A stretch of DNA of 64,000 nt from positions 1,125 to 65,124 of the forward strand of contig DAIDHL010000003.1 of assembly GCA_027459745.1 (NCBI GenBank), written 5' to 3'. Under the pieces are notes generated by a model. That model searched no databases. It saw only the letters and a program-made list of their open reading frames with translations, and was not told the DNA's origin. The translations under genes were made by a program, and so were the position numbers. Below, piece by piece: positions 29,313 to 48,503 of the stretch (position 1 is its first letter; every line of letters starts with the position of its first letter). This stretch comes from Candidatus Levyibacteriota bacterium (GTDB lineage: Bacteria > Patescibacteriota > Microgenomatia > Levybacterales > UBA12049).

Positions 29313-29326
29313 AATTAATTTAGTTC

Positions 29327-29356: not shown

Positions 29357-29362
29357 AATCAC

Positions 29363-29410: not shown

Positions 29411-29441
29411 CGCGGTGTATTTGTGTTGAGCAAAACAAGTA

Positions 29442-29463
29442 CCCCGCCAAGCGGGGTTTTTTT
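29442..29463 (+). terminator. Attenuator terminator CCCCGC-CAA-GCGGGG + T7
   Basis: Perfect 6-bp GC stem followed by seven T residues, 12 nt upstream of the ilvB ATG. Confidence 0.6.
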
Positions 29464-29474
29464 ATGACAAAAAT

Positions 29475-31166: not shown

Positions 31167-31169
31167 TCT

Positions 31170-32650: not shown

Positions 32651-32657
32651 ATAAGAT

Positions 32658-33038: not shown

Positions 33039-33064
33039 CAGTATGGTATATATTTTTGTAAAAT
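33035..33064 (+). promoter_or_regulatory. Promoter TTGACA-18-TAAAAT driving second leader peptide (leaderless)
   Basis: TTGACA at 33035-40. The -10 element ends 7 nt before the leader ATG at 33072. Confidence 0.4.
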
Positions 33065-33071
33065 ACAAAAT

Positions 33072-33122
33072 ATGATAAATAGAACTCAAGTTGTTGTTGC
33101 TCTCCTTCTTATCCGTTCTTAG
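33072..33122 (+). CDS. Branched-chain-type leader peptide MINRTQVVVALLLIRS (16 aa)
   Basis: Codon run GTT GTT GTT GCT CTC CTT CTT ATC. The stop TAG overlaps a GCGGG element. Confidence 0.5.
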   Translation: MINRTQVVVALLLIRS

Positions 33123-33160
33123 CGGGTTAGATTTGGTGCAATAAACACACAAAATCATAT

Positions 33161-33181
33161 CCCGCGAAAGCGGGTTTTTTT
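33161..33181 (+). terminator. Attenuator terminator CCCGC-GAAA-GCGGG + T7
   Basis: GNRA-type loop. An upstream GCGGG copy at 33122-26 could form an antiterminator with CCCGC. Confidence 0.55.
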
Positions 33182-33826
33182 ATGGTAAATTTAGCAGAGA
33201 TAGAACCATCAATAAGATCATTTTCTACACCTTCAATAACTGAAGGAGGATTAGTAGTACCTCAAGCATTACCTATTCATGCTAGAGATAGATCGTTCTC
33301 AGATTTACGCAGAGTCCGATTTATAGACGCTGTAGATGAGGATCGTGGATACCCAATCTTAAAATACCTACCTCATTCTTCACAGCCAGTAATGTTTGGG
33401 ATACCACGAGGAGATCAACCAATCTATGGTGGAATATTGCGTAACATGGATCGTCATAATGTTGCATTATATGCACTAAACAAACAAATGGGTGGAGCAG
33501 AAAGAATAAGAACATATCTACGAGGATATTATGAAGTTAATAGACAAAAAAATGACCATTCGCGTCACATGGTTATCTTTGAAATGCATCCAGATGAGAA
33601 AGGCAAATTTGATCCAAAGGACTTACAGCCGGAAGAGTGGGGTTTTTTTGACCCTAACCAATATTTAACACAACAAAATATTCAAAGTATTATGTCTGCT
33701 GCAGCTGCTGATACATTAAGAGTTCAATATAGTAGAATATCTACGACAGCGTTTGAACAAAAAGCTCTTCAAGCCGAAAGAGCAGCTCGCAAGAAACATT
33801 CTTATTATGATCATCAAAGTGACTAA
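33182..33826 (+). CDS. Hypothetical protein (start uncertain; the ATG immediately follows the terminator T-run)
   Basis: 214-aa ORF with no recognisable motif. Confidence 0.4.
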   Translation: MVNLAEIEPSIRSFSTPSITEGGLVVPQALPIHARDRSFSDLRRVRFIDAVDEDRGYPILKYLPHSSQPVMFGIPRGDQPIYGGILRNMDRHNVALYALNKQMGGAERIRTYLRGYYEVNRQKNDHSRHMVIFEMHPDEKGKFDPKDLQPEEWGFFDPNQYLTQQNIQSIMSAAAADTLRVQYSRISTTAFEQKALQAERAARKKHSYYDHQSD

Positions 33827-34075
33827 AGATCTGTGCAGGAATTTTAGTTTTGTATTATAATCTGCCCATGGAAAGAAGACCTTTCTCAGTTTATATACAC
33901 TCCACTCCCAAGACGGAAGTGTTGAGTAGCAGTTTGGAATATGCTGATAAGCAACCAGATCCTCATTCATCTATCAGTATTTTTGTCAAAGAAAGAAGAT
34001 TAAATAGCCAACCAAGAGGACTCCGAGCAGCTGTACTTAGAAGAAGATTAAAAACACAAAATAAAAAGTAGAGTG

Positions 34076-34149
34076 TGGGCCCTACAGGGCTCGAACCTGT
34101 GACCTTTACAATGTCAATGTAACGCTCTAGCCAACTGAGCTAAGAGCCC
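34076..34149 (-). tRNA. tRNA-Val (anticodon GAC)
   Basis: Acceptor GGGCTCT/AGGGCCC, D arm GCTC-AGTTGGCTA-GAGC, anticodon stem-loop TTACA-TTGACAT-TGTAA, T loop TTCGAGC. Confidence 0.8.
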
Positions 34150-34194
34150 AAACTGACTCCAATTATAGCATAAAATTTCTCACACTCAGTAGAA

Positions 34195-35400
34195 CTATTT
34201 ATTTACAAATAAAATAGCATTGGGAATATTGCGGCCAGGTCCTAATTTATAACCTCCATACCAAAGAGCAGTAGATCCACCTTCGTCTAAATTAAGTGCA
34301 TTATTCATACCCATCGCTTTCATTACATTCGCACTATCTTGCATCGTCGCGCCTAAGACATCGCCGATATAAATGGTACTACCAATATTTGCGATAAAAC
34401 CCCGTGTACCAACGCTATTATACTTTCCATCCCCGCTGCCTCCATAGACAATTTGATTATTTAGAACTAACAACGGCTGCATCGCCAAGACCATATCTGG
34501 ACTAGTATCACGACCCCATTGCTCAGAAGCGGATACAAAACGCACATTAGTTCCGGAAATAATTACAGCAGGGACTATGCTATATACATTATTAGCAGAG
34601 TTGAAATAAGTTTTATTTTTATTCATTAATAAAGTATCAAATGATCCTGTTTTACCTGCACAGCTGGGATAATCTGCTGGACAAAAAAATGTACCATTTA
34701 TGCCCGCCCATGCACCGTTACGCGAAACATAATCTGACAGAGGTAGTACAGGACAATTATTACCACAATCAGAGCCAGAAGCAGTATCGACAATTATGCG
34801 GGTCGAATTTAAATCAGCAGCAATAATATCGACTAAAAAAATTCCATTGCTAGTGCTAACATACTGCTGATTAAAACCATTCTTGGGAGGTATGTTTGAT
34901 GTGGTCGCATTGGCAGGTGCTAAACTACCTCCTGGTGTGCTCATTGCTGCAATCGTGTCTTGTGCTTGGGTAATTTGTGATTTTAAGACGCTTAAACTTG
35001 CCGATGCTGATGCGTAGTTCATTTCTCCCAAATCACTCACAGTCGTAACATACAGTGGAATCAATTTATCAATTTTTTGATTTTGATCCTGTAGATCCAG
35101 CATATCTTGATAAGCACTGATTGAAGATTTATAAGTTGATTGAATATTTTTTTCTAGATTCTCTAACGCTTGATTACGTTTATATTGATCCTGGTTTTTT
35201 AATGCTAAATAATTTTTATCAAGTATAGCTAAATTAATTGACAAAGCTGAAGTCTGTTGTTGTTGAGAAACTAAAGAATCATCAGTAAAAAAAATATAGA
35301 TCAAAAGAGCAATACATGATAATAACAGAATTACAATTATTATCCCTTCTTCGACCGGCAACCAAGTGATAAATTTTTTATAAATCCTTTTTATGTACAT
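34195..35400 (-). CDS. Phosphodiester glycosidase family protein (DUF2233/NAGPA-like), membrane-anchored with coiled coil
   Basis: C-terminal NALNLDEGGSTALWYGG resembles the NAGPA-domain signature. N-terminal TM and a Q-rich coiled coil. Confidence 0.5.
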   Translation of the reverse strand: MYIKRIYKKFITWLPVEEGIIIVILLLSCIALLIYIFFTDDSLVSQQQQTSALSINLAILDKNYLALKNQDQYKRNQALENLEKNIQSTYKSSISAYQDMLDLQDQNQKIDKLIPLYVTTVSDLGEMNYASASASLSVLKSQITQAQDTIAAMSTPGGSLAPANATTSNIPPKNGFNQQYVSTSNGIFLVDIIAADLNSTRIIVDTASGSDCGNNCPVLPLSDYVSRNGAWAGINGTFFCPADYPSCAGKTGSFDTLLMNKNKTYFNSANNVYSIVPAVIISGTNVRFVSASEQWGRDTSPDMVLAMQPLLVLNNQIVYGGSGDGKYNSVGTRGFIANIGSTIYIGDVLGATMQDSANVMKAMGMNNALNLDEGGSTALWYGGYKLGPGRNIPNAILFVNK

Positions 35401-35461
35401 AAAATAATGTTAGCATGAAGACTCTTGCAATTAAAAGCTTTATTATCTAAAATTTTATCTC

Positions 35462-35863
35462 ATGTCCAAAGCGTTTGTTGATAATCTAATCCACAATATG
35501 AAACTCGCCGGAGTTATAACCAAAGTCACACCTTGGTCAGTTGAGGGATTCGGAGATAAAGCTCTCAATGTCCGATATCTGGGAATTAAACTCCCCGAAG
35601 ACTGGCAGGAAATTTTTTCCGATAAAAATAATTTGTTATTAAAATTTGTGATTGATCGCTCAACTGCGGTGGTTGAATTTTATCTGGCCAACAAACCACC
35701 CTTTGTAAAAATAATTACACGTGATTTTAATGACGGCGATAAATGGGAGAATGTCTTGGGTGAAGTGAAGAATAGATTAAAACGTGACAAAGCAGATTTT
35801 CAAAATCACAATGAACAAGTAGGAAATATTTATAGCCGAATAAATGCTGCGCTCAAGAAGTAA
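35462..35863 (+). CDS. Hypothetical protein
   Basis: 133-aa ORF. Confidence 0.4.
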   Translation: MSKAFVDNLIHNMKLAGVITKVTPWSVEGFGDKALNVRYLGIKLPEDWQEIFSDKNNLLLKFVIDRSTAVVEFYLANKPPFVKIITRDFNDGDKWENVLGEVKNRLKRDKADFQNHNEQVGNIYSRINAALKK

Positions 35864-35888
35864 GAATTATATTTAGTTTTAAATAGAC

Positions 35889-36185
35889 TTAGTCACTATT
35901 TACCACACCTACGTAATCAATTTTTGGGAAGCGCATCCTAATTTCTTTCCAAAAATTTTCAGATAGACTCTGTGAGAATTTACCATATTTACCTGACTCA
36001 GTTTTGGAGCATAGCATATTTTCCCAGCGTTGAATGATACGCACGGCTTTTTGTCCAATTTGATTAAATTCTTCTTGAAATACCTGTGGTTCATCGACGT
36101 ATTTAGCGTGAATCAGCGAGAAGGATTCAAATAATTCCTTGTTCGCCTCAAGCATGTCCAAAACTTGTTGTTTGTACTTAACCAT
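35889..36185 (-). CDS. Hypothetical protein
   Basis: 98-aa ORF. Confidence 0.35.
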   Translation of the reverse strand: MVKYKQQVLDMLEANKELFESFSLIHAKYVDEPQVFQEEFNQIGQKAVRIIQRWENMLCSKTESGKYGKFSQSLSENFWKEIRMRFPKIDYVGVVNSD

Positions 36186-36249
36186 AAAGATCTATGCTAA
36201 TAAAATAAACACTTTTCGTCAAGATATATTTGGTGTTATACTATTTTCC

Positions 36250-36840
36250 ATGACTCACGAACAGGCATATATACTACTGACTAAATATTTAAAAAACAAG
36301 AATCTAATCAAGCATTGCCGATCTTGTGAAGTCGCCATGCAAGCTTTGTGCAAACACTTACACCCCGATGCAACAGAAGAAGAAATACAAACCTGGGGCA
36401 TCACTGGACTATTACATGATGTTGATTATGAGATAGCCCAAGAAAAAAATATGTTGGATAAACACGGCTTGTTAATTTTTGATAAAACCCTCATCGGTAT
36501 TGAAGAGACTACTTTTCCTGAGAGAATTAAACATGCTATTCAAGCCCACAATTATGAGCATACGCAAGTTATGCCAGCCAGTGATTTAGATTGGGGAATA
36601 GCCTGTATAGATCAGCTAACTGGCCTAATCATTGCTGCTGCTTTGGTACGACCTGATAAACAACTAAGTTCGGTAGACACAACAACCGTTTTAAAAAGAT
36701 TTAAAGAAAAAAGTTTTGCCAAAGGTGCGAGTAGAGAGTCTATCCAAAATTGTGAAGAAAAACTCGGCATTCCACTTGATCAGTTTATTACTATTACTCT
36801 GCAAGCCATGCAGGAAATCCACCAAGAATTAGGTTTATAA
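36250..36840 (+). CDS. HD-domain phosphohydrolase family protein
   Basis: H...HD pattern (CKHLH ... GLLHDVDYE). TGTTATACT extended -10 lies 7 nt before the ATG at 36250 (leaderless). Confidence 0.5.
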   Translation: MTHEQAYILLTKYLKNKNLIKHCRSCEVAMQALCKHLHPDATEEEIQTWGITGLLHDVDYEIAQEKNMLDKHGLLIFDKTLIGIEETTFPERIKHAIQAHNYEHTQVMPASDLDWGIACIDQLTGLIIAAALVRPDKQLSSVDTTTVLKRFKEKSFAKGASRESIQNCEEKLGIPLDQFITITLQAMQEIHQELGL

Positions 36841-36955
36841 GCTCCAAAGTTTAAATTATATATCTCAGAAAACTTGGAAAACTCAGTTAATCAGTCTGAT
36901 AACCTTACTGGGCTGATTCTCTGAGTGTCCTGAAAATTGTGATTAATTTGAGGAT

Positions 36956-37447
36956 CTATGGTCTTACAATGTGCCAGACGCCACCGACGCCATCACCATT
37001 TATATCACCAGGTTTTTTATCCTGAATATAGTAGTACAAAGGCATACCTTTCCAAGCAAATTGTTTGGAACCATCACTGCGTGTAATCACGGAGATGTTG
37101 GCAGGAAAAGTCTTCTGCGCGGTCGCGCCCGATGTATAAATCGGCCAGACAGCCAAACATTGTCCTGCACAATTACTTACACCATTATTATCCTTACTAT
37201 AGGTATAAAGTGTATTCCCAGCAAAATCAGTCAAATATTGTCCTTTGGTTTTGTCTGTTTTAATCAAATAAATGTTGTCCGAAGGAACCATGGCAGTAGT
37301 TGTTTTATTTGAAGTCACCGTAGTATTCATCATAACCGGAGTGGGCTGGGACATACCCAACATAGCTTTAAGCTGATGTCTCTCGAAATAACCACCAATT
37401 GCAGCTAATACAATTATTACTATTACTATCCACAACCATGTTTTCAT
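36956..37447 (-). CDS. Secreted lipoprotein-like protein with COG4315 (PF03640) repeats
   Basis: Two copies of the pattern Y..D..G.TLY.Y..D...S.C.G.C...WP and G.PLYYY..D..PGD..GDGV..VWH.V. Confidence 0.5.
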   Translation of the reverse strand: MKTWLWIVIVIIVLAAIGGYFERHQLKAMLGMSQPTPVMMNTTVTSNKTTTAMVPSDNIYLIKTDKTKGQYLTDFAGNTLYTYSKDNNGVSNCAGQCLAVWPIYTSGATAQKTFPANISVITRSDGSKQFAWKGMPLYYYIQDKKPGDINGDGVGGVWHIVRP

Positions 37448-37504
37448 ATACTAATGTGAGAATAATCACTTTTTAATTCGTTGTCAATATCTAAATAACA
37501 AATA

Positions 37505-38023
37505 CTAAAATTTCCTACTATCATAGGCCCAGTGCAATAGGGCTTGTCTTTGAACAGGACGGCACAAGAGATCCTCTGGACGGCAATTTTTATTTATTTG
37601 TGCAATATGTCGTCGCATATTCTTCCATCTTTTAACTTGCCTAAGATCTTCACTTGGGATACGTCTACCCATGTAATAGCGACAATACCACTGAAACCAA
37701 CCCCTAGGATCATCCCTATAAATCCATCCCTTATTTTGCCAAATCTTTAGTGGCTGACTGGCATTTACTTTAAAATAATTCAATTGTGCATCATGAAACT
37801 CGTGATTTAACTTAGCGTATTCAAACCAATCAGAAGGAAATTCTGTAAGACAATCTGTCATGTATTTACCACCAAAGACACCCATTCGTAGCATCTCTTT
37901 AGGAGTAAGATCAGGTTTAAATTCAGAAGCAAAGTTTTTACCAACTGGCTCAATCAGAAAGTAGGTATAGTTTTTCTGCATTAAGTCATTTACCACTACT
38001 TTTCTCATCGATTCATCACCCAC
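37505..38023 (-). CDS. Hypothetical protein
   Basis: 172-aa Trp/Arg-rich ORF (RGWFQWYCRYYMGRR). No family assigned. Confidence 0.4.
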   Translation of the reverse strand: MGDESMRKVVVNDLMQKNYTYFLIEPVGKNFASEFKPDLTPKEMLRMGVFGGKYMTDCLTEFPSDWFEYAKLNHEFHDAQLNYFKVNASQPLKIWQNKGWIYRDDPRGWFQWYCRYYMGRRIPSEDLRQVKRWKNMRRHIAQINKNCRPEDLLCRPVQRQALLHWAYDSRKF

Positions 38024-38499
38024 ACACTATAGTTTAAATAACCAGCAAACGTCACCCATAACAAGTACGGTATTAAGATATAACCCGCAGCTTTTGAAAT
38101 TCTAGCAAATATTAACATGCACGCCAAGATAGTCATCCATAAAACACCCATTTCCCATAAAGCAAAAAATGGCTGTTGCCAACCAAAAAAAATCACCGAC
38201 CAAAAGAAATTTAACACTAATTGCAGAACGAACATTTGTATACCCAGTAATTTGGTCACTGCTAACCTGCCCTGATTTTTTTTATTCCACACCAAAAATA
38301 GTGCAATTCCCATTAGAAAATATAACGTTGTCCACACGGGTCCAAATACCCACGCTGGGGGATTTAAACTGGCTTTATGTAATCCTGCATACCAAGTAGG
38401 GATAGCTGTAAGTGTAAACGGGATGCTTAACAATCCAACTGACTCACAAATAACAATAGCACCAAGTACTTTGCTTATAAACTTGAAATTTAACTTCAT
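38005..38499 (-). CDS. TspO/MBR (tryptophan-rich sensory protein) family
   Basis: NPPAWVFGPVWTTLYFLMGIALFLVW, with 5 TM segments. Confidence 0.7.
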   Translation of the reverse strand: MKLNFKFISKVLGAIVICESVGLLSIPFTLTAIPTWYAGLHKASLNPPAWVFGPVWTTLYFLMGIALFLVWNKKNQGRLAVTKLLGIQMFVLQLVLNFFWSVIFFGWQQPFFALWEMGVLWMTILACMLIFARISKAAGYILIPYLLWVTFAGYLNYSVWVMNR

Positions 38500-38582
38500 T
38501 ATTTTCAGTATGTATCAGTACATTAAGTATGTCAATAAATAATAAAACAGATTAAGAGAGCGACTTTTTAAGTTTACAAAAC

Positions 38583-38650
38583 AATATCTGGCAACATTTG
38601 GCAATATCTGGTAATATTCGGTAATATCTGGCAATCTTTCGACAATTTCA
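38583..38650. repeat. Tandem array of ~6 degenerate 10-11-bp units (consensus ATATCTGGCA) in the promoter region of the second Fic gene
   Basis: The units read aatatctggca / acatttggca / atatctggta / atattcggta / atatctggca / atctttcgaca, i.e. helical phasing at about 10.5 bp. Confidence 0.5.
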
Positions 38651-38672
38651 GGACTATAGTTTAAATAATAAT

Positions 38673-39671
38673 ATGGATATACCTCCACTATTTCAAATCA
38701 CCAACAACATGTTAACCACTATTGCCCAAATAGAAGGATTGCGATCCTCATTGGAGATTACTCGAGTTCCTGATCTTATATTATCCCATTTACGTTCTGA
38801 AAGTTTGCTCAAAAGTTCTGTTTTTTCAGCTCAGATCGAAGGCAATACATTATCCGTTCAAGATATTCAAAATAGAGAATCAGAAAAAAATGAAACTGAT
38901 TACCAGCATCAAGAAGTTGAAAATATTATTAATGCTTTATCACTAATGCGAGAAAATGAACTTCCGCAAATTATTGATTTGGACTTCATATTAACATTAC
39001 ATAAACAAGTCATGCATAACTTGGTACATTCATCTCAAGCCGGAAAATTAAGACGGGAACCTAGTGCTATTTTTGATCAATCAGGCAATGTCGTTTATAT
39101 GACACCTCCTCCTTCACAATTAGAACCGCTGCTTTCAGATCTACTGCGTTTGATTAATCAATCTGATAATATCTTTCCTCTGATTAAAATTGCGCTTGTG
39201 CATCTCTGTTTTGAAAAAATTCATCCTTTCTTAGATGGCAATGGTAGGGTAGGTAGATTGATTATTCAAGCTTTGCTCGCCAAACATAATTATCATTTTC
39301 AGTGGTTACTTTCCATTGAAGAAGGCTTACAAGAGAAAAAACAAACCTATTATGTTTTGCTTGATAGAAATGATGCCAGTGAATTTATCGAATTCTTTTT
39401 GTCTGTGATTTTAGATGAAGCGGAAAAGTTAAAAGCTAATTTAAGTAATATTAACAATCCACAACCGCAAGATTTTCTTTTACCTCGGAGGAAAGAGATT
39501 TTAAATATTATTACAGAGCAAAATATAGTGTCTTTTGATCAATTACACCGTAGATTTTTAAAAATTCCTGATCGTACTCTGCGTTATGATCTACAACAGT
39601 TAGAAAAGGCTGGCTTTATACAAAAAGTCGGCACGACCAGAGGAGCAATGTATCAAGTTATCAAACATTAA
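38673..39671 (+). CDS. Fic family protein (class II) with C-terminal wHTH
   Basis: HPFLDGNGRVGRLI Fic motif. The N-terminal inhibitory motif is SAQIEGN. Confidence 0.8.
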   Translation: MDIPPLFQITNNMLTTIAQIEGLRSSLEITRVPDLILSHLRSESLLKSSVFSAQIEGNTLSVQDIQNRESEKNETDYQHQEVENIINALSLMRENELPQIIDLDFILTLHKQVMHNLVHSSQAGKLRREPSAIFDQSGNVVYMTPPPSQLEPLLSDLLRLINQSDNIFPLIKIALVHLCFEKIHPFLDGNGRVGRLIIQALLAKHNYHFQWLLSIEEGLQEKKQTYYVLLDRNDASEFIEFFLSVILDEAEKLKANLSNINNPQPQDFLLPRRKEILNIITEQNIVSFDQLHRRFLKIPDRTLRYDLQQLEKAGFIQKVGTTRGAMYQVIKH

Positions 39672-39740
39672 GTATTATTTGACAAAGCTATTATGTTTTG
39701 TTAGCATAAACCAACTATGTGCAAACTACTTAATATTTTT

Positions 39741-39767
39741 ATGACCGGTACAACTACCTCTGTTTAG
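39741..39767 (+). CDS. Thr-rich leader peptide MTGTTTSV (8 aa)
   Basis: ATG ACC GGT ACA ACT ACC TCT GTT TAG. The stop overlaps GCGGGG (39767-72). A TTGACA hexamer lies at 39678. Confidence 0.45.
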   Translation: MTGTTTSV

Positions 39768-39794
39768 CGGGGTTGTATTGATGTGCAATAGATA

Positions 39795-39816
39795 CCCCGC
39801 AAAGCGGGGTTTTTTT
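39795..39816 (+). terminator. Attenuator terminator CCCCGC-AAA-GCGGGG + T7
   Basis: Perfect 6-bp stem and a T7 run. The upstream GCGGGG copy supports an antiterminator alternative. Confidence 0.55.
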
Positions 39817-39847
39817 ATGGTTTGATACCTAAAGAAAGGAGGAAAAA

Positions 39848-40087
39848 ATGGCAAAAGAAATAAAACTTGATGATTTTCATTTTGTCTCACCAGATGTGAG
39901 AGGACAGATTGTACCTGATTTTTATGAAAGACTAATTATCAGACAACCTGATCCACGTTTCAATCTTGATAGCCAAAATTATTTTGGAGCTCAAAGAAAA
40001 GATAAATTACCCAAAGCTTGTTTGGCAAAAGATAGGGCAAGAATCGATTCTATAAGAGCTCAACTAAAAATAGTTGCTAGACAATAA
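39848..40087 (+). CDS. Hypothetical small protein (strong SD)
   Basis: AAAGGAGGAAAAAATG. 79 aa. Confidence 0.45.
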   Translation: MAKEIKLDDFHFVSPDVRGQIVPDFYERLIIRQPDPRFNLDSQNYFGAQRKDKLPKACLAKDRARIDSIRAQLKIVARQ

Positions 40088-40166
40088 TGATGAAAGCAGT
40101 AGAATGGTGGACGCTAGCTACCATTGTCTGCTTTATAAAAGCTCGAGTTTTTGCTATATTACAAAC

Positions 40167-41924
40167 ATGAACACATCAGATAATTTACAAAATCTACGTC
40201 ACACCAGTGCACATCTATTAGCTGCTGCTGTGCAAAAGCTTTATCCCGATGCTAAAAGAGCGATTGGTCCAGCCATTGAATCTGGTTTTTATTACGATTT
40301 TGAGTTTAATAAACCACTTACGGAAGAAGATTTACCCAAAATTGAGGAAGAGATGAAAACGATTCTCAAGACTTGGACAAAAACTGACCATCGAGAAGTA
40401 ACAAACAATGAAGCAATGAAACAATTTAACAATGAGCCTTATAAACTTGAACTAATTGAGGAATTTGCTAAAGAAGGAAAAACATTAACGATCTATAAAA
40501 ATGGCGAGTACGAAGACTTATGCAAAGGCGGCCATGCAGAGAATCCTGCCAAAGAAATTGGCGCTTTCAAACTTTTATCTCTGGCCGGCGCCTATTGGCG
40601 AGGCAGTGAAAAAAATAAAATGTTGACCAGAATTTATGGTACAGCTTTTTCTACTCAAGCTCAACTTGATGAATATTTATTGATGCAAGAAGAAGCCAAA
40701 AAAAGAGATCACAAAAAACTTGCTTCACAACTTGAACTATTCTTCTTTGATGATACTGCTCCTGGTATGGCTTATTGGTTACCCAAAGGGCTAACTCTAT
40801 ATAACACCTTGTATTCTTTTGCTCGAGAAATGTATAGAAAATATGGCTATCAGGAAGTTGCAACTCCTCAGCTCAATAAAAAAGAATTGTATGAAACTTC
40901 TGGTCATTGGGCACATTATCGAGATGATATGTTTTTATCACCCATGAGTTATTTGAGAGATGAATCAGACAATCCCATGGAGGGCAGCGAAGTATTTGGT
41001 GTAAAACCTATGAACTGTCCCAATCACATGCGTATATTTGCACATAAAACACGTTCATATCATGATTTGCCTTTGCGCTTAGCAGAAACGACGAGCCTAC
41101 ATAGATTTGAACTCTCTGGCACATTAAATGGTTTGTTTAGAATCAGACAATTTCGCCAGGATGATGCCCACATCTTTATTTATCCTGAGCAGGCTAAACA
41201 AGAATTTGAGAGTTTACTAAAAATGATTGAAGAAATGTATTCGCCATTTAATTTAACTTACCGCTTCAGATTTGGTACCAGACCAGACAGTCATTTGGGA
41301 GAAGCTTCTGACTGGGATATTGCAGAGGATGTATTACGAAAAGTTCTGAACGCGTCAGGTAAAGAATATTTTGAATTAGCGGGAGAAGGAGCATTTTATG
41401 GCCCTAAAGTCGATATTTTAATGAAAGATTCACTAGGTCGTGAATGGCAGACAGGCACAATTCAGTTGGATATTCAACAACCCAAACGCTTTGGGCTGCA
41501 CTATATAGACAGTGAAGGAAGTGAAAAAATGCCATTTGTCTTTCACAGAGCTATAGTAGGATCATTTGAACGCTTCTTAGGTATCTTAATTGAACACTTC
41601 GCCGGAGTGTTTCCATTATGGATGGCACCTATCCAAGTTGCGCTTCTTCCGATAGCAGATAGGCACGTCGAATACGCGCAGAAAGTCAAGAAGCAGCTTG
41701 AGCAACATGATATCCGAGTAGAAGTATCCGATAATGCTGATACCCTCCAGGCCAAGATACGCAACGCTACTTTACAAAAAGTACCACTTATGGGTATAAT
41801 AGGGGATAAGGAAATAGCTGCAGAAGCTATTTCTGTCCGTTCAAGAGCCGGAGAAAACTTGGGTAGCCAAGCAATCAACGACTTTTTGCAGAAAGTTAAA
41901 CAAGACATTGATAAAAAGATTTAA
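40167..41924 (+). CDS. thrS: Threonine--tRNA ligase lacking the N1 (TGS) domain
   Basis: The editing-domain HxxxH motif (HTSAHLLAAA) is near the N-terminus. Class II core and anticodon-binding domain follow. Start chosen at MNTSDN. Confidence 0.85.
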   Translation: MNTSDNLQNLRHTSAHLLAAAVQKLYPDAKRAIGPAIESGFYYDFEFNKPLTEEDLPKIEEEMKTILKTWTKTDHREVTNNEAMKQFNNEPYKLELIEEFAKEGKTLTIYKNGEYEDLCKGGHAENPAKEIGAFKLLSLAGAYWRGSEKNKMLTRIYGTAFSTQAQLDEYLLMQEEAKKRDHKKLASQLELFFFDDTAPGMAYWLPKGLTLYNTLYSFAREMYRKYGYQEVATPQLNKKELYETSGHWAHYRDDMFLSPMSYLRDESDNPMEGSEVFGVKPMNCPNHMRIFAHKTRSYHDLPLRLAETTSLHRFELSGTLNGLFRIRQFRQDDAHIFIYPEQAKQEFESLLKMIEEMYSPFNLTYRFRFGTRPDSHLGEASDWDIAEDVLRKVLNASGKEYFELAGEGAFYGPKVDILMKDSLGREWQTGTIQLDIQQPKRFGLHYIDSEGSEKMPFVFHRAIVGSFERFLGILIEHFAGVFPLWMAPIQVALLPIADRHVEYAQKVKKQLEQHDIRVEVSDNADTLQAKIRNATLQKVPLMGIIGDKEIAAEAISVRSRAGENLGSQAINDFLQKVKQDIDKKI

Positions 41925-42498
41925 TCGAAATCAAGATCAAAGAAAGCAATACCATATCAATGACCGCATTTATTCGGTAACATTGAGGGTACTTGATGCC
42001 GAAGGTAAACAGATCGGTATCATGGGGAAACATGAAGCACTGAGACTGGCAGCAGAACAAAATGTTGATGTAGTCGAAATTGTACCTAATGCAAATCCGC
42101 CCGTAGCCAAACTGATTGATTTCCAGAAATTTTTGTATCAAGAACAGAAAAAGAAGCAAGAGGAAAAACGCAAAGCTAAGACAACTGAGACAAAAGAAGT
42201 AAGATTGGGACCTTTTATGTCTGATAATGACTTACAAGTCATGATGAGACGAGCAAGAGAGTTCCTAAATAACGGTGATAAAGTAAGAATGGTTTTGAGA
42301 TTTCGCGGCCGTCAGATTACTCATCCAGAATTTGGATACAAGATGATGAGTAAAATGATTGAAGGCTTAGATGACATTTCAAAAGTAGACCGTGAACCTC
42401 ACTTAGAGGGTCACCAAATGGTTGGATTATTATCTGTAGAAAGGAATAAAAAAAATGAAAAAGAAGAAAATAAGCAAAGCAGCGGCCAGACGGTTTAA
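41908..42498 (+). CDS. infC: Translation initiation factor IF-3 (non-ATG start likely)
   Basis: YSVTLRVLDAEGKQIGIM...EIVPNANPPVAKLIDFQKF. The frame begins with TTG and overlaps the thrS end. Confidence 0.8.
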   Translation: MIKRFNRNQDQRKQYHINDRIYSVTLRVLDAEGKQIGIMGKHEALRLAAEQNVDVVEIVPNANPPVAKLIDFQKFLYQEQKKKQEEKRKAKTTETKEVRLGPFMSDNDLQVMMRRAREFLNNGDKVRMVLRFRGRQITHPEFGYKMMSKMIEGLDDISKVDREPHLEGHQMVGLLSVERNKKNEKEENKQSSGQTV

Positions 42499-42652
42499 AA
42501 TTACCAAAACAGGTAAGGTCATGTTTGCCCACCAATATGGCAGTCACAAAAAGTTAACTAAATCTAAACGTAGAATTCGTCGCCAAAAAGAACCAGCCCA
42601 GTTGCACGGAAGATTTGCATTTAAGATTAAAAAGATTTTAGGAGCAGCATAA
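42455..42652 (+). CDS. rpmI: 50S ribosomal protein L35
   Basis: MKKKKISKAAARRFKITKTGKV. 65 aa. Confidence 0.75.
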   Translation: MKKKKISKAAARRFKITKTGKVMFAHQYGSHKKLTKSKRRIRRQKEPAQLHGRFAFKIKKILGAA

Positions 42653-42653
42653 T

Positions 42654-43004
42654 ATGGCAAGAGTAAAACGCGGGATGGTCTCCCGAAGAAAACATAATAA
42701 ATTACTTAAATTAGCTAAAGGCTATACGGGTACTAAGGGTCGTTTGGTCAGAACAGCAAAGCAAGCTGTTTTGCATGCAGGAGCTTATGCCTTCCATGGC
42801 CGCAAACTTCGCAAAAGAGATTTCCGTTCATTATGGATCACTCGCATCAGTGGTGCAGTCAAACAACAAGGTCTTTCTTATAGTGTTTTTATGAATAAGT
42901 TACAAAAGTCTAATATCGTTCTTGACCGCAAGATTTTGAGTGATTTGGTCGTCAATGATCCAGCTGCCTTCAAACATATAGTTGACACAGTTAAAGCAAA
43001 ATAA
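42654..43004 (+). CDS. rplT: 50S ribosomal protein L20
   Basis: MARVKRGMVSRRKHNKLLKLAKGYTG... is a canonical L20. Confidence 0.9.
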   Translation: MARVKRGMVSRRKHNKLLKLAKGYTGTKGRLVRTAKQAVLHAGAYAFHGRKLRKRDFRSLWITRISGAVKQQGLSYSVFMNKLQKSNIVLDRKILSDLVVNDPAAFKHIVDTVKAK

Positions 43005-43010
43005 TATTAT
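42982..43010 (+). promoter_or_regulatory. Promoter TTGACA-17-TATTAT inside the rplT 3' end, driving a leaderless pheM-like leader
   Basis: The -10 ends at 43010; the leader ATG is at 43017. Confidence 0.45.
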
Positions 43011-43016
43011 AAATGC

Positions 43017-43088
43017 ATGAACTCACGTATTAACAATTCTTTTTGGTTTTACTTTACTTCCCCAACCGGGAGGCTTGTTAGTGCTTAA
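43017..43088 (+). CDS. Aromatic/Phe-rich leader peptide MNSRINNSFWFYFTSPTGRLVSA (pheM-like)
   Basis: FWFYF codon run. It contains GGGAGG (43068-73), which matches the terminator 3' half. Its position after rplT is the same as E. coli pheM. Confidence 0.5.
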   Translation: MNSRINNSFWFYFTSPTGRLVSA

Positions 43089-43117
43089 GCACTAACATTG
43101 GAGTAATCCAACTTAGA

Positions 43118-43140
43118 CCTCCCGAAAGGGAGGTTTTTTT
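43118..43140 (+). terminator. Attenuator terminator CCTCCC-GAAA-GGGAGG + T7
   Basis: Perfect 6-bp stem, GNRA loop and seven T residues. Confidence 0.55.
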
Positions 43141-43191
43141 GTACTTATTTTTCAAAACATATTAACAAATATGAGAAAGGAGGTGAAATAC

Positions 43192-43473
43192 ATGTCAGTT
43201 GAAATAAACTCGAGTAAAGGATTAGATGTTGTACGCAAAATTGCAGCAAAAAGAAGGAGTGGCTTTATTATTAGTAATGATTCACTATCTCAAGCAGAAG
43301 TTACATTAGGCCAACGACATTCAAATGCAAACAGAAGAACTCGTTATGATGCTAGTTTACTACAACAAGCATCTGAACACGTTCCAGCTAGTTTGATGAC
43401 CGATGTTGTTAACAATGGATTAGCCATTTTGGTTGATTATACTGGAAATCTCTCGTTAAGAAGAGAACAGTAG
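43192..43473 (+). CDS. Hypothetical small protein (very strong SD AAAGGAGGTGA)
   Basis: 93-aa ORF. Confidence 0.45.
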   Translation: MSVEINSSKGLDVVRKIAAKRRSGFIISNDSLSQAEVTLGQRHSNANRRTRYDASLLQQASEHVPASLMTDVVNNGLAILVDYTGNLSLRREQ

Positions 43474-44011: not shown

Positions 44012-45160
44012 ATGTATTTTAAAACCGCCAAACGCTTAGAATTATTTTCAGAATATGTCTTTGCTAAAATTGGCAGGGAAGTGGCCAAAATCGAGAAAGA
44101 GGCTGGTAAAAAGGTACTCAATTTCGGCATTGGTTCTCCTGACGTGCCGACCAGTGAAATTTATTTAGACAAATTGGAAGAATATTTGCATGATGGCAAA
44201 ATGCATTTGTATCCGGGTTTTCGTGCATGTAAGGAATTGTCTGAAGCCTTAATCAGTTGGTATCAACAAAGATTTAATGTTGATTTAAATTCAGATGAAT
44301 TATTGCCATTGTTGGGCGCTAAAGAAGGAATCGCCCATTTGCCTTTGGCTTTATTAAATGAAGGAGATGAGATATTAATTCCCAATCCAGGTTATCCAGC
44401 CTACACCGATCCGGCCTTAATGATCGGGGCTAAACCGATTTATTATGATTTAACGGATAACGAAACAAATCCGATTGATTTAACATCCCTATCAAAATTA
44501 ATAACACCTAAAACTAAATGTATGTGGGTAAATTTTCCGTCTAACCCGACTGGAAAAATAATAACTCTATCAGCTTTGGAGGAATTAGTAGAGTTTGCTA
44601 AAAAGCACAATTTAATAATTCTTTATGACAATGCTTATGCCGAAATTACCTTTGATGGGAATAAAGCACCCAGTATTTTACAAATTAAAGGAGCCAAAGA
44701 CATTGCCATTGAGATAGGTTCATTTTCTAAAACGTATTCGTTCGCTGGTTTACGTATGGGTTGGATTGTGGGGAATAAACAAATTGTCGATGCTCTGGCC
44801 AAAGTAAAATCACAAGTTGATTCAGGCATGTGGTTACCTTTACAAAAACTTGGTGCTTATGCACTGACTAATCCTGATCTGGTTTGGCAGAAACAAATGT
44901 TAGAAAGTTATCAACTCAGAAGAGATATTATAGCTAAAAAGCTTAAAACACTTGGTCTGATATTTGAATTACCACGCGGAGCTTTATATATTTGGGCCAA
45001 AATTCCGGATACATATAAAAATTCAGAAGAATATTCCATGCACATTCTACACGAGAAAAAAATTCTTTTGACACCAGGTACCGCCTTCGGTTCCAATGGA
45101 GAACGCTTTGTCAGAGTAAGTTATTGTGTAAATATAGAGGGGATAGAGAGGTATTTTTAA
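44012..45160 (+). CDS. Class I/II PLP-dependent aminotransferase (LL-DAP/aromatic aminotransferase-like)
   Basis: NPGYPAYTDPA... and the PLP-lysine motif SFSKTYSFAGLRMGW. Confidence 0.75.
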   Translation: MYFKTAKRLELFSEYVFAKIGREVAKIEKEAGKKVLNFGIGSPDVPTSEIYLDKLEEYLHDGKMHLYPGFRACKELSEALISWYQQRFNVDLNSDELLPLLGAKEGIAHLPLALLNEGDEILIPNPGYPAYTDPALMIGAKPIYYDLTDNETNPIDLTSLSKLITPKTKCMWVNFPSNPTGKIITLSALEELVEFAKKHNLIILYDNAYAEITFDGNKAPSILQIKGAKDIAIEIGSFSKTYSFAGLRMGWIVGNKQIVDALAKVKSQVDSGMWLPLQKLGAYALTNPDLVWQKQMLESYQLRRDIIAKKLKTLGLIFELPRGALYIWAKIPDTYKNSEEYSMHILHEKKILLTPGTAFGSNGERFVRVSYCVNIEGIERYF

Positions 45161-45338: not shown

Positions 45339-46373
45339 ATGGAAGAGGAATTATTGAGAATTAAAAACAACGCCATTTCACTCATCCTGGAAGCTAAAAG
45401 CAAACAAGAATTAAATGAAATCAAACTTCAATTTGTCGGACGTAGTGGTGAACTAACTAAAATATTTAAAGAAATAACCAAACTCTCTCCAGATAAGAAA
45501 GCTGAAGTAGGTAAAAAAATCAACGAAACCAAACAAATTGTCGAAAATTTAATCAACCAAACCGAGGCCAAACTTGGTGAAAAAGCCAGACAGCGAGTCG
45601 CCCATAATATTGACGTTACTGATCCGGCCGTCCTTCCTCCACTTGGACATTTACATCCAGTCACTCAGGTCATCGAAGAGATAACCAACATTTTCGAGCG
45701 TATCGGTTTTACCCGTGAACGTTATCCTGAAATTGATTTTGATTGGTTTGCATTTGAAGCACTAAATTTTCCCCAAGATCATCCAGCAAGAGATGACTGG
45801 GAAACGTTTTTTATAAGACAACAACCTGATCCCAAACATGGACCGGTTGTATTAATACCGCATACTTCAAACGGACAAATCCGAGAAATGTTAAATAAAG
45901 AACTACCTATCAAAATGTTAAATATTGCCAAGACTTATCGACGACAATCTGATGTTTCACACGCTGCGATGTTCCATCAGTTTGAAACTCTAGTCGTAGG
46001 CAAGAATATCTCCATAGTCCATTTAAAAGGTACTTTGGATTATTTTGTAAAATCATATTTCGGTGCCGATAGAAAAACTAGAATTAGACCATATCATTTT
46101 CAATTTACCGAACCTTCATTTGAAGTTGATATTTCTTGTGGAGTGTGTGATGGAAAGGGCTGTAAACTTTGCAAAGCTGGTTGGCTCGAATTGGGTGGGG
46201 CAGGGATGGTCCATCCAAATGTTCTAAAAGCATGTAATATCGATCCCAACGAATATTCAGGTTTTGCCTCAGGATTTGGTGTGGAACGAGTTCTAATGAT
46301 GCGTGAGGGTTTGCAGATAGATGATCTACGAACGTTGTATGGAAATAAGCTAGAGTTTCTAGAACAGTTTTAA
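45339..46373 (+). CDS. pheS: Phenylalanine--tRNA ligase alpha subunit
   Basis: Class II core motifs (FQFTEPSFEVD, GAGMVHPNVL). Confidence 0.9.
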   Translation: MEEELLRIKNNAISLILEAKSKQELNEIKLQFVGRSGELTKIFKEITKLSPDKKAEVGKKINETKQIVENLINQTEAKLGEKARQRVAHNIDVTDPAVLPPLGHLHPVTQVIEEITNIFERIGFTRERYPEIDFDWFAFEALNFPQDHPARDDWETFFIRQQPDPKHGPVVLIPHTSNGQIREMLNKELPIKMLNIAKTYRRQSDVSHAAMFHQFETLVVGKNISIVHLKGTLDYFVKSYFGADRKTRIRPYHFQFTEPSFEVDISCGVCDGKGCKLCKAGWLELGGAGMVHPNVLKACNIDPNEYSGFASGFGVERVLMMREGLQIDDLRTLYGNKLEFLEQF

Positions 46374-46377
46374 CGCA

Positions 46378-46494
46378 TTGTGATCCCGACCGACTGAGCA
46401 AAGTGAAGGAGTGGAGGAATCTCTCGCGAATGCGAGAAAAATTGCACATAAAGTGCGAAATCCCTCGGCTCACTCCGTTCGCTCGAGATGACAG
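46378..46494. repeat. 117-bp MITE/REP-like element (copy B) between pheS and pheT
   Basis: Its arms are about 90% identical to the opposite arms of copy A. The core is in the same orientation, with compensatory hairpin changes. Confidence 0.5.
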
Positions 46495-46511
46495 ATCAAC
46501 AAATAAAACAT

Positions 46512-48503
46512 ATGAACATAAAAATACTTGATTCTTGGTTAAGAGAATATTTACAAACAGATGCTACTGCATACGAAGTGGCCAAGCAGATCTCGCTGAC
46601 AAGTGTCTCAATTGAAAGAGTAGAGAAGCACAAAGATGACTTTATTTACGATATTGAAGTAACGACCAATCGTCCCGACTTGGCTAGCGTTAACGGCTTG
46701 GCACGAGAAGCGGGAACTGTATTACCACAGAATGGGATAAGAGCCATTTATAAACCCCTTGTCCTTATGCACGAAGAGAAACAATCTAGTACAAACAATG
46801 AGATTGCTTCGTCGTCTTTAACTCCTGTCCATGACTTATTAAAAATTGAACTTGCTATCAAAGCCGTCAACCGTGTATGTGCGGTTGTAATGGACGTAAA
46901 AATTGACAAATCGCCTGAGCAAGTTATTGAAAGACTCGAGACTAGTGGGATTCGAAGTTTAAATAACTTGATAGATATTACCAACTATGTCATGCGGGTA
47001 ACCGGACAACCAACGCATGTGTTTGACTACGACCGCTTAGGGGGAACAGAACTAACTATTCGAGAAGCCAAAACCGGAGAAGAAATCACCACACTTGATA
47101 ATAAAACATACACACTTAATGGGGGAGAAGTAATAGCAGAAAACGAAAAGGGCGAAATAGTTGATTTATTAGCTATCATGGGTCTAAAAAACAGTGTAGT
47201 GACCGAACAAACCAAGCGTATCGTTTTCTTTGTCAATAATATTGACTCAAACAAAATTAGAAAAGCTTCCATGAATCTAGGTATCCGAACTGAAGCAGCT
47301 CAATTAAATGAAAAACATTTAGATCCCAACCTTTGTGAAGTAGCACTACAATATGGAATTCAACTTTATCAAGAATTAGCCGAGGGTAAAGTTGTCAGTC
47401 CTATCATAGACCTTTATCCGCATGCATCTGAAGAAAAACAGGTCGTCGTCAGTTTGGCTAAGATAAACAGCGTAATCGGCATCGACATATCCGCAGAAAA
47501 ATCGATTGATATTTTGACTAAATTAGGTTTCCAGGTCCAGCAAGAAGAAGACAACTTATATGTAACTGTGCCTACTATTCGCGCTTATGATGTTACTCTT
47601 CCCGAAGATATTATCGAAGAAATCGCTCGTGTCTATGGCTATCACAATTTACCAGTAGAGCTTCCTTCACTAAATACACAACAAGCTATACAACAGGAAA
47701 AAAATCCTTTTTACTGGGAACAAAGAATCAAAAATACCTTAAAATATTGGGGATTTACCGAAACTTACACCTATTCCATGATACCCGAGAACCTCTATGA
47801 AGGTCCTCTGAATGAAGCGGTTACCATTTCCAACCCCCTCAATGAAGAGTTCGTTTATATGCGCAATACCTTGATACCAAGCTTATTGCGTGTAGTTAGT
47901 GAGAACAAAAGTTATGAACAAGTCAAGATTTTTGAGATTGCCAACGTTTATCAGAAAAGACAAAATAAATTGCCGGAAGAAATCAGAATGCTAGCGGGAG
48001 TAATTAAGCAAAAACAAATCTCATTTTTTGTAGTTAAAGGTTACTTACAACAGCTATTTAATGATCTGGGAGTTAATAATTATGAGTTTAAACCGTCAGA
48101 TCAAGGCGGAGATGGCACAAAAATCTATGTTGCGGAAAAATATCTTGGAGATATAGAAATTTTAGATGAAAATTTAATTGACTTCGAACTTAATTTTGAA
48201 TTGTTAATAGCCCATGCCTCCCTGAGAAAAACCTATATTCCTGCCAGTAAATTCCCTCCTGTCCTTGAAGATATTTCTTTGGTGATCCCGGCAGATATTT
48301 TGACTCAGGAGGTTATAGATTTAATTAAAAAACAAAGTTCTTTAATCGTTAATGTTGAATTAATAGACCGCTATGAAAATAACCGAACTTTCCATGTTAT
48401 ATATAGGGATAATGAAAAGAATTTAACACAAGATGAAATAAAGACTCTGCATGAAAAAATCCTTTCTTCCCTCAAAAAGAAATGGCAAATTAAGGAAGAG
48501 TAA
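46512..48503 (+). CDS. pheT: Phenylalanine--tRNA ligase beta subunit (short form)
   Basis: MNIKILDSWLREYL is a canonical PheT N-terminus, and the C-terminal ferredoxin-fold domain is present. Start placed after the repeat. Confidence 0.85.
   Translation: MNIKILDSWLREYLQTDATAYEVAKQISLTSVSIERVEKHKDDFIYDIEVTTNRPDLASVNGLAREAGTVLPQNGIRAIYKPLVLMHEEKQSSTNNEIASSSLTPVHDLLKIELAIKAVNRVCAVVMDVKIDKSPEQVIERLETSGIRSLNNLIDITNYVMRVTGQPTHVFDYDRLGGTELTIREAKTGEEITTLDNKTYTLNGGEVIAENEKGEIVDLLAIMGLKNSVVTEQTKRIVFFVNNIDSNKIRKASMNLGIRTEAAQLNEKHLDPNLCEVALQYGIQLYQELAEGKVVSPIIDLYPHASEEKQVVVSLAKINSVIGIDISAEKSIDILTKLGFQVQQEEDNLYVTVPTIRAYDVTLPEDIIEEIARVYGYHNLPVELPSLNTQQAIQQEKNPFYWEQRIKNTLKYWGFTETYTYSMIPENLYEGPLNEAVTISNPLNEEFVYMRNTLIPSLLRVVSENKSYEQVKIFEIANVYQKRQNKLPEEIRMLAGVIKQKQISFFVVKGYLQQLFNDLGVNNYEFKPSDQGGDGTKIYVAEKYLGDIEILDENLIDFELNFELLIAHASLRKTYIPASKFPPVLEDISLVIPADILTQEVIDLIKKQSSLIVNVELIDRYENNRTFHVIYRDNEKNLTQDEIKTLHEKILSSLKKKWQIKEE

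Follow-up and report, generated by a model that had tools for sequence, protein, structure and literature searches.

We describe the leader region of thrS, the gene for threonyl-tRNA synthetase (ThrRS), in a stretch of 64,000 nucleotides from a Candidatus Levyibacteriota bacterium (contig DAIDHL010000003.1, positions 1,125 to 65,124). We call this whole stretch the window. Upstream of thrS lie, in this order, a promoter (P1), a short upstream open reading frame (uORF) with Thr codons, an intrinsic terminator, an open reading frame of 79 codons (ORF79), a hairpin and a second promoter (P2). Downstream thrS is followed by infC, rpmI and rplT (Table 1). The real start of thrS is the ATG at 40167 and not the TTG at 40074 which appears in the mechanical list of open reading frames. 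ORF79 with its strong Shine–Dalgarno (SD) sequence and then thrS are found where the original prediction had placed them. We predict that the leader is a classical ribosome-mediated leader-peptide transcription attenuator which senses charged tRNA-Thr, and we put the probability of this reading at roughly 0.7. A classical amino-acid-sensing attenuator is the most likely interpretation because the same design recurs in relatives. For this comparison 49 thrS loci (L001–L049) were set against the window.

Table 1. Coordinates of the thrS leader region and of the three further leader units in the window
Feature	Position	Strand	Description
Promoter P1	39679–39707	+	-35 TTGACA (39679-84), 17-nt spacer, extended -10 TGtTAGCAT (39699-39707)
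Leader ORF	39717–39767	+	16 codons plus TAG; MCKLLNIFMTGTTTSV
Regulatory Thr codons	39744-46; 39750-58	+	ACC (codon 10); ACA ACT ACC (codons 12-14); from the sequence
Region 1	39746–39761	+	5′ strand of helix 1:2; holds the Thr codons
Region 2	39766–39780	+	AGCGGGGUUGUAUUG; begins inside the stop codon; partner is region 1 or region 3
Region 3	39792–39800	+	A.ACCCCGC; 3′ strand of antiterminator 2:3, 5′ strand of terminator 3:4
Region 4 and U7	39804–39816	+	GCGGGG; makes the intrinsic terminator with region 3
Terminator	39795–39816	+	CCCCGC (39795-39800), AAA, GCGGGG (39804-09), T7 (39810-16); consensus scan
ORF79 with SD	SD 39836-42; ORF 39848-40087	+	SD AAGGAGG; 79 codons; first ORF on the read-through transcript
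Hairpin between ORF79 and thrS	40093–40134	+	conserved; no real U tract; 11-nt GGACGCUAGCU loop
Promoter P2 of thrS	40132–40160	+	TTTATA-17-TGcTATATT; ends 6 nt before the thrS ATG
thrS	40167–41924	+	ThrRS, 585 aa; Pfam tRNA_SAD (editing), class II core and anticodon-binding domains
infC, rpmI, rplT	41908–43004	+	after thrS
Ile/Val leader	uORF 29363-29410; terminator 29441-29464; unit 29326-29464		MIRNQNVIIALIITR; leaderless, with promoter
Val/Leu leader	uORF 33072-33122; terminator 33161-33181; unit 33035-33181		MINRTQVVVALLLIRS; directly before a 214-aa ORF
Phe leader	promoter 42982-43010; uORF 43017-43088; terminator 43115-43142		MNSRINNSFWFYFTSPTGRLVSA; directly after rplT

P1 scores 10/12 in a promoter consensus scan and has the upstream TG. 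Its end lies 9 nucleotides (nt) before the ATG at 39717, thus the leader mRNA should be leaderless or nearly so. The leader peptide had been described as MTGTTTSV, with four Thr among eight codons. This reading frame is present (ATG 39741-43, ACC GGT ACA ACT ACC TCT GTT, TAG 39765-67), but it is the in-frame C-terminal half of MCKLLNIFMTGTTTSV and its start has to be moved. The position of the promoter and the length of the ORF in the leader family favor a start at 39717, which is probably the correct one. An internal Met 7-8 codons ahead of the stop recurs in six family members, and since the Thr codons lie downstream of both ATGs the attenuation logic would be the same for either start. Three of the four Thr codons are consecutive, and the Thr codons of the window align with the ACA ACA ACC ACT run of L046 and with the ACC ACC ACT run of L045. 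As had also been claimed, a GCGGGG (39767-39772) shares its first G with the TAG stop, and the CCCCGC half of a perfect terminator begins 28 nt after it. The terminator was listed independently by a consensus scan (39794-39816, 7 pairs, 6 of them G-C, a loop of 3 and U7). The two strands of the window together hold 974 ORFs of 5-25 codons that start with ATG, and none of the others combines at least four Thr with a length of at most 15 codons. The whole leader is more stable than its shuffles (folding z = -3.0). The chance of finding the anatomy seen in the window alone is p roughly 0.01 after allowing for the choice of gene and amino acid, which is suggestive. The comparative data turn this suggestive anatomy into a convincing case.

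The competition between the stop-overlapping GCGGGG and the terminator, which the original prediction had pointed out, holds, but the element is better described as an attenuator with four regions and three helices. Helix 1:2 pairs CGGUACAACU.CC.CU with AG.GGGGUUGUAUUG (-13.4 kcal/mol); it includes the codons ACA ACU ACC and has the stop codon partly in its loop. Helix 2:3 spans 39767-39800, encloses a hairpin at 39776-39790 and has -16.9 kcal/mol, and helix 3:4 has -12.5 kcal/mol. The antiterminator 2:3, whose 5′ strand starts inside the stop codon, and the terminator 3:4 are mutually exclusive. The duplex of region 2 with the 5′ arm of the terminator has -14.0 kcal/mol, which corresponds to p = 0.0017 when compared with 9083 other 24-nt windows of the sequence; in the other family members the stretch next to the stop codon is complementary to this arm with p = 0.001-0.09 each, measured against other windows of the same locus. 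The leader thus combines a short ORF with cognate codons, an intrinsic terminator, a 2:3 antiterminator and a 1:2 helix which holds the regulatory codons. By analogy, its three-helix logic would be that of the classical trp, thr, his and pheST attenuators.

We then asked how the position of a ribosome changes the fold. The RNA up to 11, 13 or 15 nt past the first base of the A-site codon was kept single-stranded. Loss of the terminator is confined to ribosomes whose A site holds codons 12-14 (mask of 11 nt), 11-13 (13 nt) or 11-12 (15 nt), and the terminator-free codons 11-14 read Gly-Thr-Thr-Thr. The same rule gives a like result for L044, for L045 and for the window's Val/Leu leader. The free leader RNA folds into 1:2 plus 3:4 or, thermodynamically, into one long hairpin (39756-39810) which abuts the U tract. 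Since the free RNA is still terminator-like at the U tract, an untranslated leader should terminate too.

The closest genome record is a metagenome-assembled genome of Candidatus Levyibacteriota (L001) with a ThrRS which is 87% identical; the next ThrRS sequences among 5.8 billion proteins are at most 72% identical. A scan of metagenomes with ThrRS returned only relatives below 50% identity and no further close genomes; one of these loci, L036, carries a Thr leader. The original prediction had asked whether the uORF is conserved in relatives. It is kept in L001, although in a reduced state which we discuss below. The L001 leader MSKLHIIVMTGSTSV retains the frame and both ATGs which correspond to 39717 and 39741. 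Its ORF is 80% identical to that of the window, the stretch between regions 2 and 3 is 88% identical and the 35 nt proximal to thrS are 97% identical. The changes in the ORF are a synonymous ACC-to-ACT exchange, an in-frame deletion of 3 nt and a Thr-to-Ser exchange.

Relatives with about 70% ThrRS identity have short ORFs with runs of Thr codons ahead of thrS, among them MTTTMTP. Such leaders are found in L045 (MKRYYIMFVKTTTS), L044 (MKRYYIMSVKTTAS) and L048 (MTMNMSSTITMTSTTS). L046 even has two tandem Thr leaders, MKKLFIACCTTTTL and then MKFVEIMTTTMTP, each with its own terminator (935-1131), upstream of ORF105 and thrS. The leader of the window can be aligned with those of the 70% relatives in promoter layout, ORF length, stop motif and terminator. 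A promoter of the form TTGAC[AG]-17-(-10) precedes the leader in L044, L045, L046, L048, L049 and L018. In the 70% relatives the leader ATG follows 1-9 nt after the -10 box, in L048 as an in-frame ATG at 7 nt. Throughout the family the ORF has 13-16 codons, the stop codon is directly trailed by CGG(A/G)GG..UUGU, and the U tract begins 41-54 nt after the stop (41-49 nt in the relatives with about 70% ThrRS identity). Three distant Patescibacteria (46-49% ThrRS identity) have leaders with a terminator directly ahead of thrS as well, namely MSQGITITTTTIL with TITTTT in L018 and L019, and MSKYVIATTTTTTFPVGE in L005 and MRKISLKLTTTTTTSF in L036, both with a run TTTTTT. In total, related and distant Patescibacteria provide 8 further cases of a uORF with a Thr run and a terminator ahead of thrS, and Thr-run uORFs in this position occur in at least four lineages. 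The association is specific. On both strands of the 49 loci and the window (326,898 nt) all pairs of a Thr-rich uORF and a terminator but one lie upstream of thrS and on its strand; the sole exception is the N-terminus of the Phe leader in L048.

The helices covary. The pairing of the alternative helices is kept while the helix sequences change: as regions 2, 3 and 4 the window has GCGGGG, CCCCGC and GCGGGG, L044 has GGAGG, CCUCC and GGGAGG, and L018 has GAGGGG, CCCCGA and UCGGGG. Of the 11 Thr leaders, most are able to form all three helices (1:2, 2:3 and 3:4) at similar energies; L001 and L005 stand out as weak. The 1:2 arrangement around the stop codon is also found in L044, L045, L046, L048, L049 and L018. 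Because the MAFFT alignment of the leaders has a register shift of one column in the terminator between members, the helices were judged in each sequence separately. The slot between attenuator and thrS varies (ORF79, ORF105, ORF115 with a HAD hydrolase gene, a HAD gene, ORF146) while the attenuator and thrS are constant. This variability argues for thrS as the gene with which the Thr leader is constantly paired, and the element of the window may be regarded as the founder of a conserved thrS leader family. Even when up to 3 mismatches are tolerated, the conserved core CTACCTCTGTTTAGCGGGGTTGTATT is present in a single copy in the window, and it never occurs in viral contigs, which speaks against a repeated element.

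We suggest that regulation proceeds in the following steps. Transcription would start at P1, at or just before the ATG at 39717, and the 16-codon ORF would be translated leaderless close behind the polymerase. When Thr-tRNA is plentiful, the ribosome would reach the stop codon and cover region 2. The 3:4 terminator could then form and transcription would end near 39816. A leader which is not translated would fold as described above for the free RNA and be terminated too. When Thr-tRNA is scarce, the ribosome would stall on ACA/ACT (codons 12-13) and cover region 1, which leaves region 2 free. The more stable helix 2:3 would form first, region 4 would stay unpaired and the polymerase would read through into ORF79 and presumably into thrS-infC-rpmI-rplT. 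P2 would supply a basal leaderless thrS mRNA, so that the attenuator would be an added inducible component and not the sole control. The threonine-sensing attenuation of thrS that had originally been proposed is supported by the leader family, by the kept helices, by the folding with positioned ribosomes and by the sister leaders presented below. We infer the translation of the uORF, the stalling of the ribosome, the read-through as far as thrS and with it the link to this gene.

Several observations weigh against this reading. First, the uORF has no SD sequence. This is acceptable only if initiation is leaderless or independent of an SD, which appears to be common in this genome. Just 19 of the 52 long ORFs of the window have an SD-like motif. 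A TATAAT-like box which ends about 6 nt before the ATG, without an SD, is seen at many genes of the window (23095, 3107, 16391, 25004, 51253, 57314, 40167). From the -10 boxes near the ATGs and the few SD motifs, leaderless and SD-independent initiation seems to be normal, and the genome appears to rely heavily on leaderless mRNAs. Second, the module looks eroded in the closest relative. The L001 leader has only 2 Thr codons, its 3:4 hairpin is degraded (UUCUGC-AAU-GCGAG) and the -35/-10 spacing of its P1 is poor. In addition, the leader of L049 (MKCYYVMSLTNIPS) keeps the helices but has a single Thr codon. Thus, threonine sensing is not equally maintained everywhere. Third, in minimum-free-energy folding several family members form the terminator at every ribosome position. 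Antitermination must therefore be kinetic in these members, as it is in the trp attenuator. Finally, thrS has its own strongly conserved promoter and hence does not need P1, and read-through from the attenuator towards thrS has to pass ORF79 and the 40093-40134 hairpin, which could halt it. Because they intervene, we can only infer that the attenuator controls thrS here.

These last points deserve closer attention. The original prediction had considered that thrS might be transcribed only from a promoter of its own at 40088-40166. P2 does exist there, yet it does not exclude read-through. P2 is 97% identical in L001, and the motif TTTAT[AT]-17-TG[CA]TATAGT is found upstream of thrS in L043, L044, L045, L048 and L049. 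As its -10 box ends so close to the ATG, a leaderless thrS mRNA is implied. Since thrS has P2, the contribution of the attenuator is limited to regulated read-through on top of it. At an early stage we leaned to the view that thrS is served by its own promoter only and that the leader is unrelated to it; the scan of all thrS loci overturned this view. Extended -10-like elements also lie between the attenuator U tract and the thrS ATG in L018 (TGTTATAAT, 2960-2992), L005 (TGTTAAAAT, 2963-2998) and L036 (TGTGATATAAT, 2444-2494). A basal promoter downstream of the attenuator may thus be a general feature of the design.

ORF79 is doubtful as a conserved protein. It has no Pfam match and no homologues in libraries of 5.8 billion and 1.84 billion proteins. 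Compared with L001, where it is frameshifted, its ratio of nonsynonymous to synonymous substitutions (dN/dS) is about 1.06, and its differences are spread evenly over the codon positions (16/13/17) whereas those of thrS are not (86/32/259). We therefore dropped ORF79 as a functional clue. Small ORFs with a similarly strong SD and unrelated sequence follow the attenuators in L046 and the Phe leaders; such ORFs may be either real proteins or only serve to load ribosomes. The 83-nt stretch with the hairpin at 40093-40134 has a folding energy of -22.7 kcal/mol (z = -2.7). It is 81% identical in L001, with two compensatory base-pair changes in the hairpin, and the 3′ end of the hairpin overlaps the -35 box of P2. 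The hairpin may be a weak terminator, a processing element or a stability element.

The strongest competing explanation builds on this arrangement. The attenuator would respond to threonine but control only the ORF79 transcript; the hairpin would end the transcript from P1, and thrS would be transcribed solely from P2. This would account for the conservation of P2 across the clade just in front of the thrS ATG, for the compensatory changes in the hairpin, and for the finding that ORF79 has the strongest SD of the region while thrS has none. The hairpin is, however, followed by just UUU and then AUAAAA and is not a proper intrinsic terminator. Moreover, ORF79, without selection at the protein level and without homologues, is an unlikely target for a threonine-specific control. 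The intervening ORF changes between genomes while the Thr leader stays by thrS, and in three distant lineages the leader directly abuts thrS. We consider this explanation unlikely, though it is the one to be taken most seriously besides an attenuator that acts on thrS.

The state of L001 raises another alternative, namely that the leader once regulated thrS and is now an evolutionary relic, because selection for regulation has gone in this lineage and P2 has taken over. The erosion of P1 spacing, Thr codons, 3:4 helix and ORF79 in L001 would agree with this, as would the almost neutral evolution of ORF79. The window, however, has every part intact: the -35 box matches the consensus, the -10 box is extended, there are four Thr codons, the 7-bp terminator is perfect and carries U7, and the three helices are balanced. 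Identity to L001 amounts to 80-88% in the leader core but to about 56% at third codon positions in thrS and to 61-70% in ORF79, thus the leader is still constrained. A relic is therefore rather improbable.

Between TspO and the thr leader there is a gene for a protein with a Fic/DOC domain and a C-terminal winged-helix/helix-turn-helix domain (38673-39671). It is missing at the same position in L001, which points to a lineage-specific insertion. With a terminator on the same strand and only 123 nt after the Fic stop codon, one might suppose that the uORF has arisen by chance and that the hairpin with its T run is the terminator of the Fic gene or closes a small non-coding RNA transcribed from P1 at its 3′ end. 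Short ORFs are abundant in AT-rich DNA, as the 974 in the window illustrate, and the uORF has no SD. But L001 has no Fic gene and a divergent TspO upstream and still has the leader; frame, start and stop of the uORF are conserved, with an indel of 3 nt which keeps the frame and a synonymous exchange from ACC to ACT; Thr-run uORFs recur ahead of thrS in the lineages named above, and the stop codon always stands at the start of region 2. We regard a chance origin as very improbable.

The covariance models of Rfam gave no known element. The model Thr_leader (RF00506) has no match at the gathering score, nor at E up to 10 in 39500-40400 or at E up to 1 in 29200-43300. The T-box model (RF00230) finds nothing at the thr leader or in the Patescibacteria loci searched. 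Weak Rfam matches to GcvB and ylbH reflect the terminator only. As positive controls, the T-box model detects the elements upstream of thrS in the Lachnospiraceae loci L003 and L004 with 112 and 103 bits. We also inspected the hairpin at 40093-40134 for a mimic of tRNA-Thr as in the ThrRS operator. Its GGACGCUAGCU loop has no NGU anticodon mimic and is unlike the tRNA-Thr anticodon loop. The ACAAC/ACCAC stretches of the leader pair with GUUGU of region 2, thus the conservation of the Thr codons is in part structural. That the leader works as a riboswitch, a ThrRS operator or a T-box-like element which binds tRNA, needs no ribosome to sense its signal and has "Thr codons" which are just the structural complement of the G/U-rich region 2, is nevertheless hardly credible, given these negative searches, a length of about 100 nt without specifier loop or T-box bulge, the ACN frame in which every lineage reads the A/C-rich stretch within an ATG-started ORF that ends at region 2, sister elements with Phe or Ile/Val/Leu codons that match their downstream genes, and a thrS without the 5′ untranslated region that a ThrRS operator needs.

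The window contains three further units of the same build with cognate codons, for Ile/Val, Val/Leu and Phe. The enriched codons match the downstream genes in each case, and the layout TTGAC[AG]-17-(-10)-6..9 nt-ATG is found in front of these leaders as well. The Ile/Val leader is followed by genes for acetolactate synthase (ilvB, 29475-31166), threonine dehydratase (ilvA, 31358-32650) and RidA (32658-33038). This unit looks like an ilv-type attenuator in a candidate phyla radiation (CPR) genome which evidently keeps some branched-chain amino acid genes. The 214-aa ORF behind the Val/Leu leader (33182-33826) has no Pfam match; the leader would predict that this protein is tied to the supply of branched-chain amino acids. 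Downstream of the Phe leader, which can also be called Phe/aromatic, are two small ORFs, an aminotransferase gene (44012-45160), pheS (45339-46373) and pheT (46488-48503). The Phe leader is kept after rplT in L001, L043-L046, L048 and L049 (8 genomes with the window) and has a sub-threshold match to Rfam Phe_leader (31.3 bits, E 0.066).

In an alignment the four leaders of the window have a mean column identity of 62%. The similarity is clearest for the thr and Val/Leu leaders, whose backbones are visibly alike. This suggests that the four leaders are paralogous; the alternative is convergence. In some places an ATG stands right after the U tract of the terminator. In L044 the arrangement GGGAGG-U7-AUG (1780-1801) starts the HAD gene, and in the window GCGGG-U7-AUG (33168-33184) contains the ATG at 33182 of the 214-aa ORF. 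The ATG at this place in the ilv unit (29452-29467) opens no more than a short ORF. Region 4 could thus double as the SD of the next gene and couple transcriptional and translational control.

We tentatively extend this to a broader picture, which we hold to be possible but well short of probable. Levyibacteria and other Patescibacteria might use one modular paralogous family of leaderless attenuators as a general amino-acid-sensing system, a "ribulon". Its backbone may consist of a promoter, an ORF of 13-23 codons whose stop codon is fused with region 2, and a terminator of the CCCGC/GCGGG type. By a swap of codons it may have been retargeted, with Thr for thrS, Phe for pheST and Ile/Val/Leu for the ilv genes. 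Each target would have its constitutive leaderless promoter, region 4 would sometimes be the SD of the next gene, and ORFs with a strong SD and fast evolution, such as ORF79, would mainly load ribosomes onto the read-through RNA.

How does the leader relate to known systems? In E. coli, the Phe-rich leader peptide PheM controls pheST downstream of thrS-infC-rpmI-rplT. The order rplT-leader-pheST in the window is the same as the E. coli order rplT-pheM-pheST. The predicted thr leader resembles this system in being ribosome-mediated, in the short ORF with cognate codons, in the overlapping antiterminator and terminator and in the gene neighborhood. It differs in that it concerns Thr and thrS, has no sequence homology, is apparently leaderless and is separated from the synthetase gene by an orphan ORF and a second promoter. 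Attenuation of pheST is a precedent for aminoacyl-tRNA synthetase genes (PMC1262725). With thrL of E. coli and other gammaproteobacteria (RF00506) our element shares a leader peptide with Thr codons which would sense Thr-tRNA via 1:2, 2:3 and 3:4, and an intrinsic terminator. E. coli thrL, however, controls thrABC biosynthesis, has Ile codons in addition and many more regulatory codons, whereas here only four Thr codons stand before a synthetase gene. The T-box of thrS and thrZ in Firmicutes (RF00230) has in common the gene, the charging of tRNA-Thr as signal and antitermination against an intrinsic terminator; unlike the leader of the window, it binds uncharged tRNA directly, needs no translation, is longer than 200 nt and has a specifier loop and a T-box bulge. 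The translational operator of E. coli ThrRS acts on the same gene at the RNA level. It needs a 5′ untranslated region in which anticodon-like hairpins adjoin the ribosome binding site, whereas the proximal thrS mRNA here would be leaderless and has no SD.

The original prediction had stated that thrS is normally served by a T-box or a protein operator. There is indeed no T-box here, but control of synthetase genes by leader peptides is not unprecedented, with pheST and with leuS, trpS, alaS and thrS of Streptomyces as examples. In Streptomyces lividans a leaderless thrL (MKRVRPFLETTPGFVPAR) with two Thr codons lies upstream of thrS, without a clear U-rich terminator according to the authors, and leaders leuL/leuS, trpL/trpS and alaL/alaS are predicted or supported by RNA-seq (PMC8079986). 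Attenuators of leuS and trpS2 were predicted in Streptomyces (PMC1262725), and a His leader is found before hisS paralogues in bacilli (PMC2965389). Like our leaders these are short leader ORFs, transcribed leaderless, before a cognate synthetase gene including thrS. In contrast to the Streptomyces thrL, most members here have Thr runs of 3-6, clear intrinsic terminators and three helices, and the family is conserved across several lineages of another phylum (Patescibacteria/CPR). Mycobacteria have leaderless short ORFs with polycysteine, the "Cys ribulon" (bioRxiv 10.1101/834739). These are also leaderless sensory ORFs with runs of one codon, and several loci per genome respond together, but the output platform here is an intrinsic terminator. 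In the literature, judged by title and abstract, we found no report on leader peptides or attenuators in Patescibacteria/CPR. Leader-peptide control of synthetase genes is already known, and we found no report of it for this bacterial group.

Very little is known about gene regulation in the CPR, since its members are seldom cultivated. Our analysis indicates that these organisms probably use classical ribosome-mediated attenuation and hence a close coupling of transcription and translation. The T-box and the ThrRS operator would be joined by a third documented style of control of thrS at the RNA level. The mechanism as such will not surprise the specialist. CPR regulation nevertheless becomes directly testable through the family, through its paralogues within one genome and through the leaderless layout, and concrete predictions follow for metatranscriptomes and for coupled systems in vitro. 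The leaderless short ORF with its codon run, the stop codon fused to region 2 and the terminator also form a search template for regulatory small ORFs in thousands of CPR genomes. If the ribulon is true, these reduced, uncultivated bacteria would rely on tight coupling of transcription and translation as a central principle of regulation.

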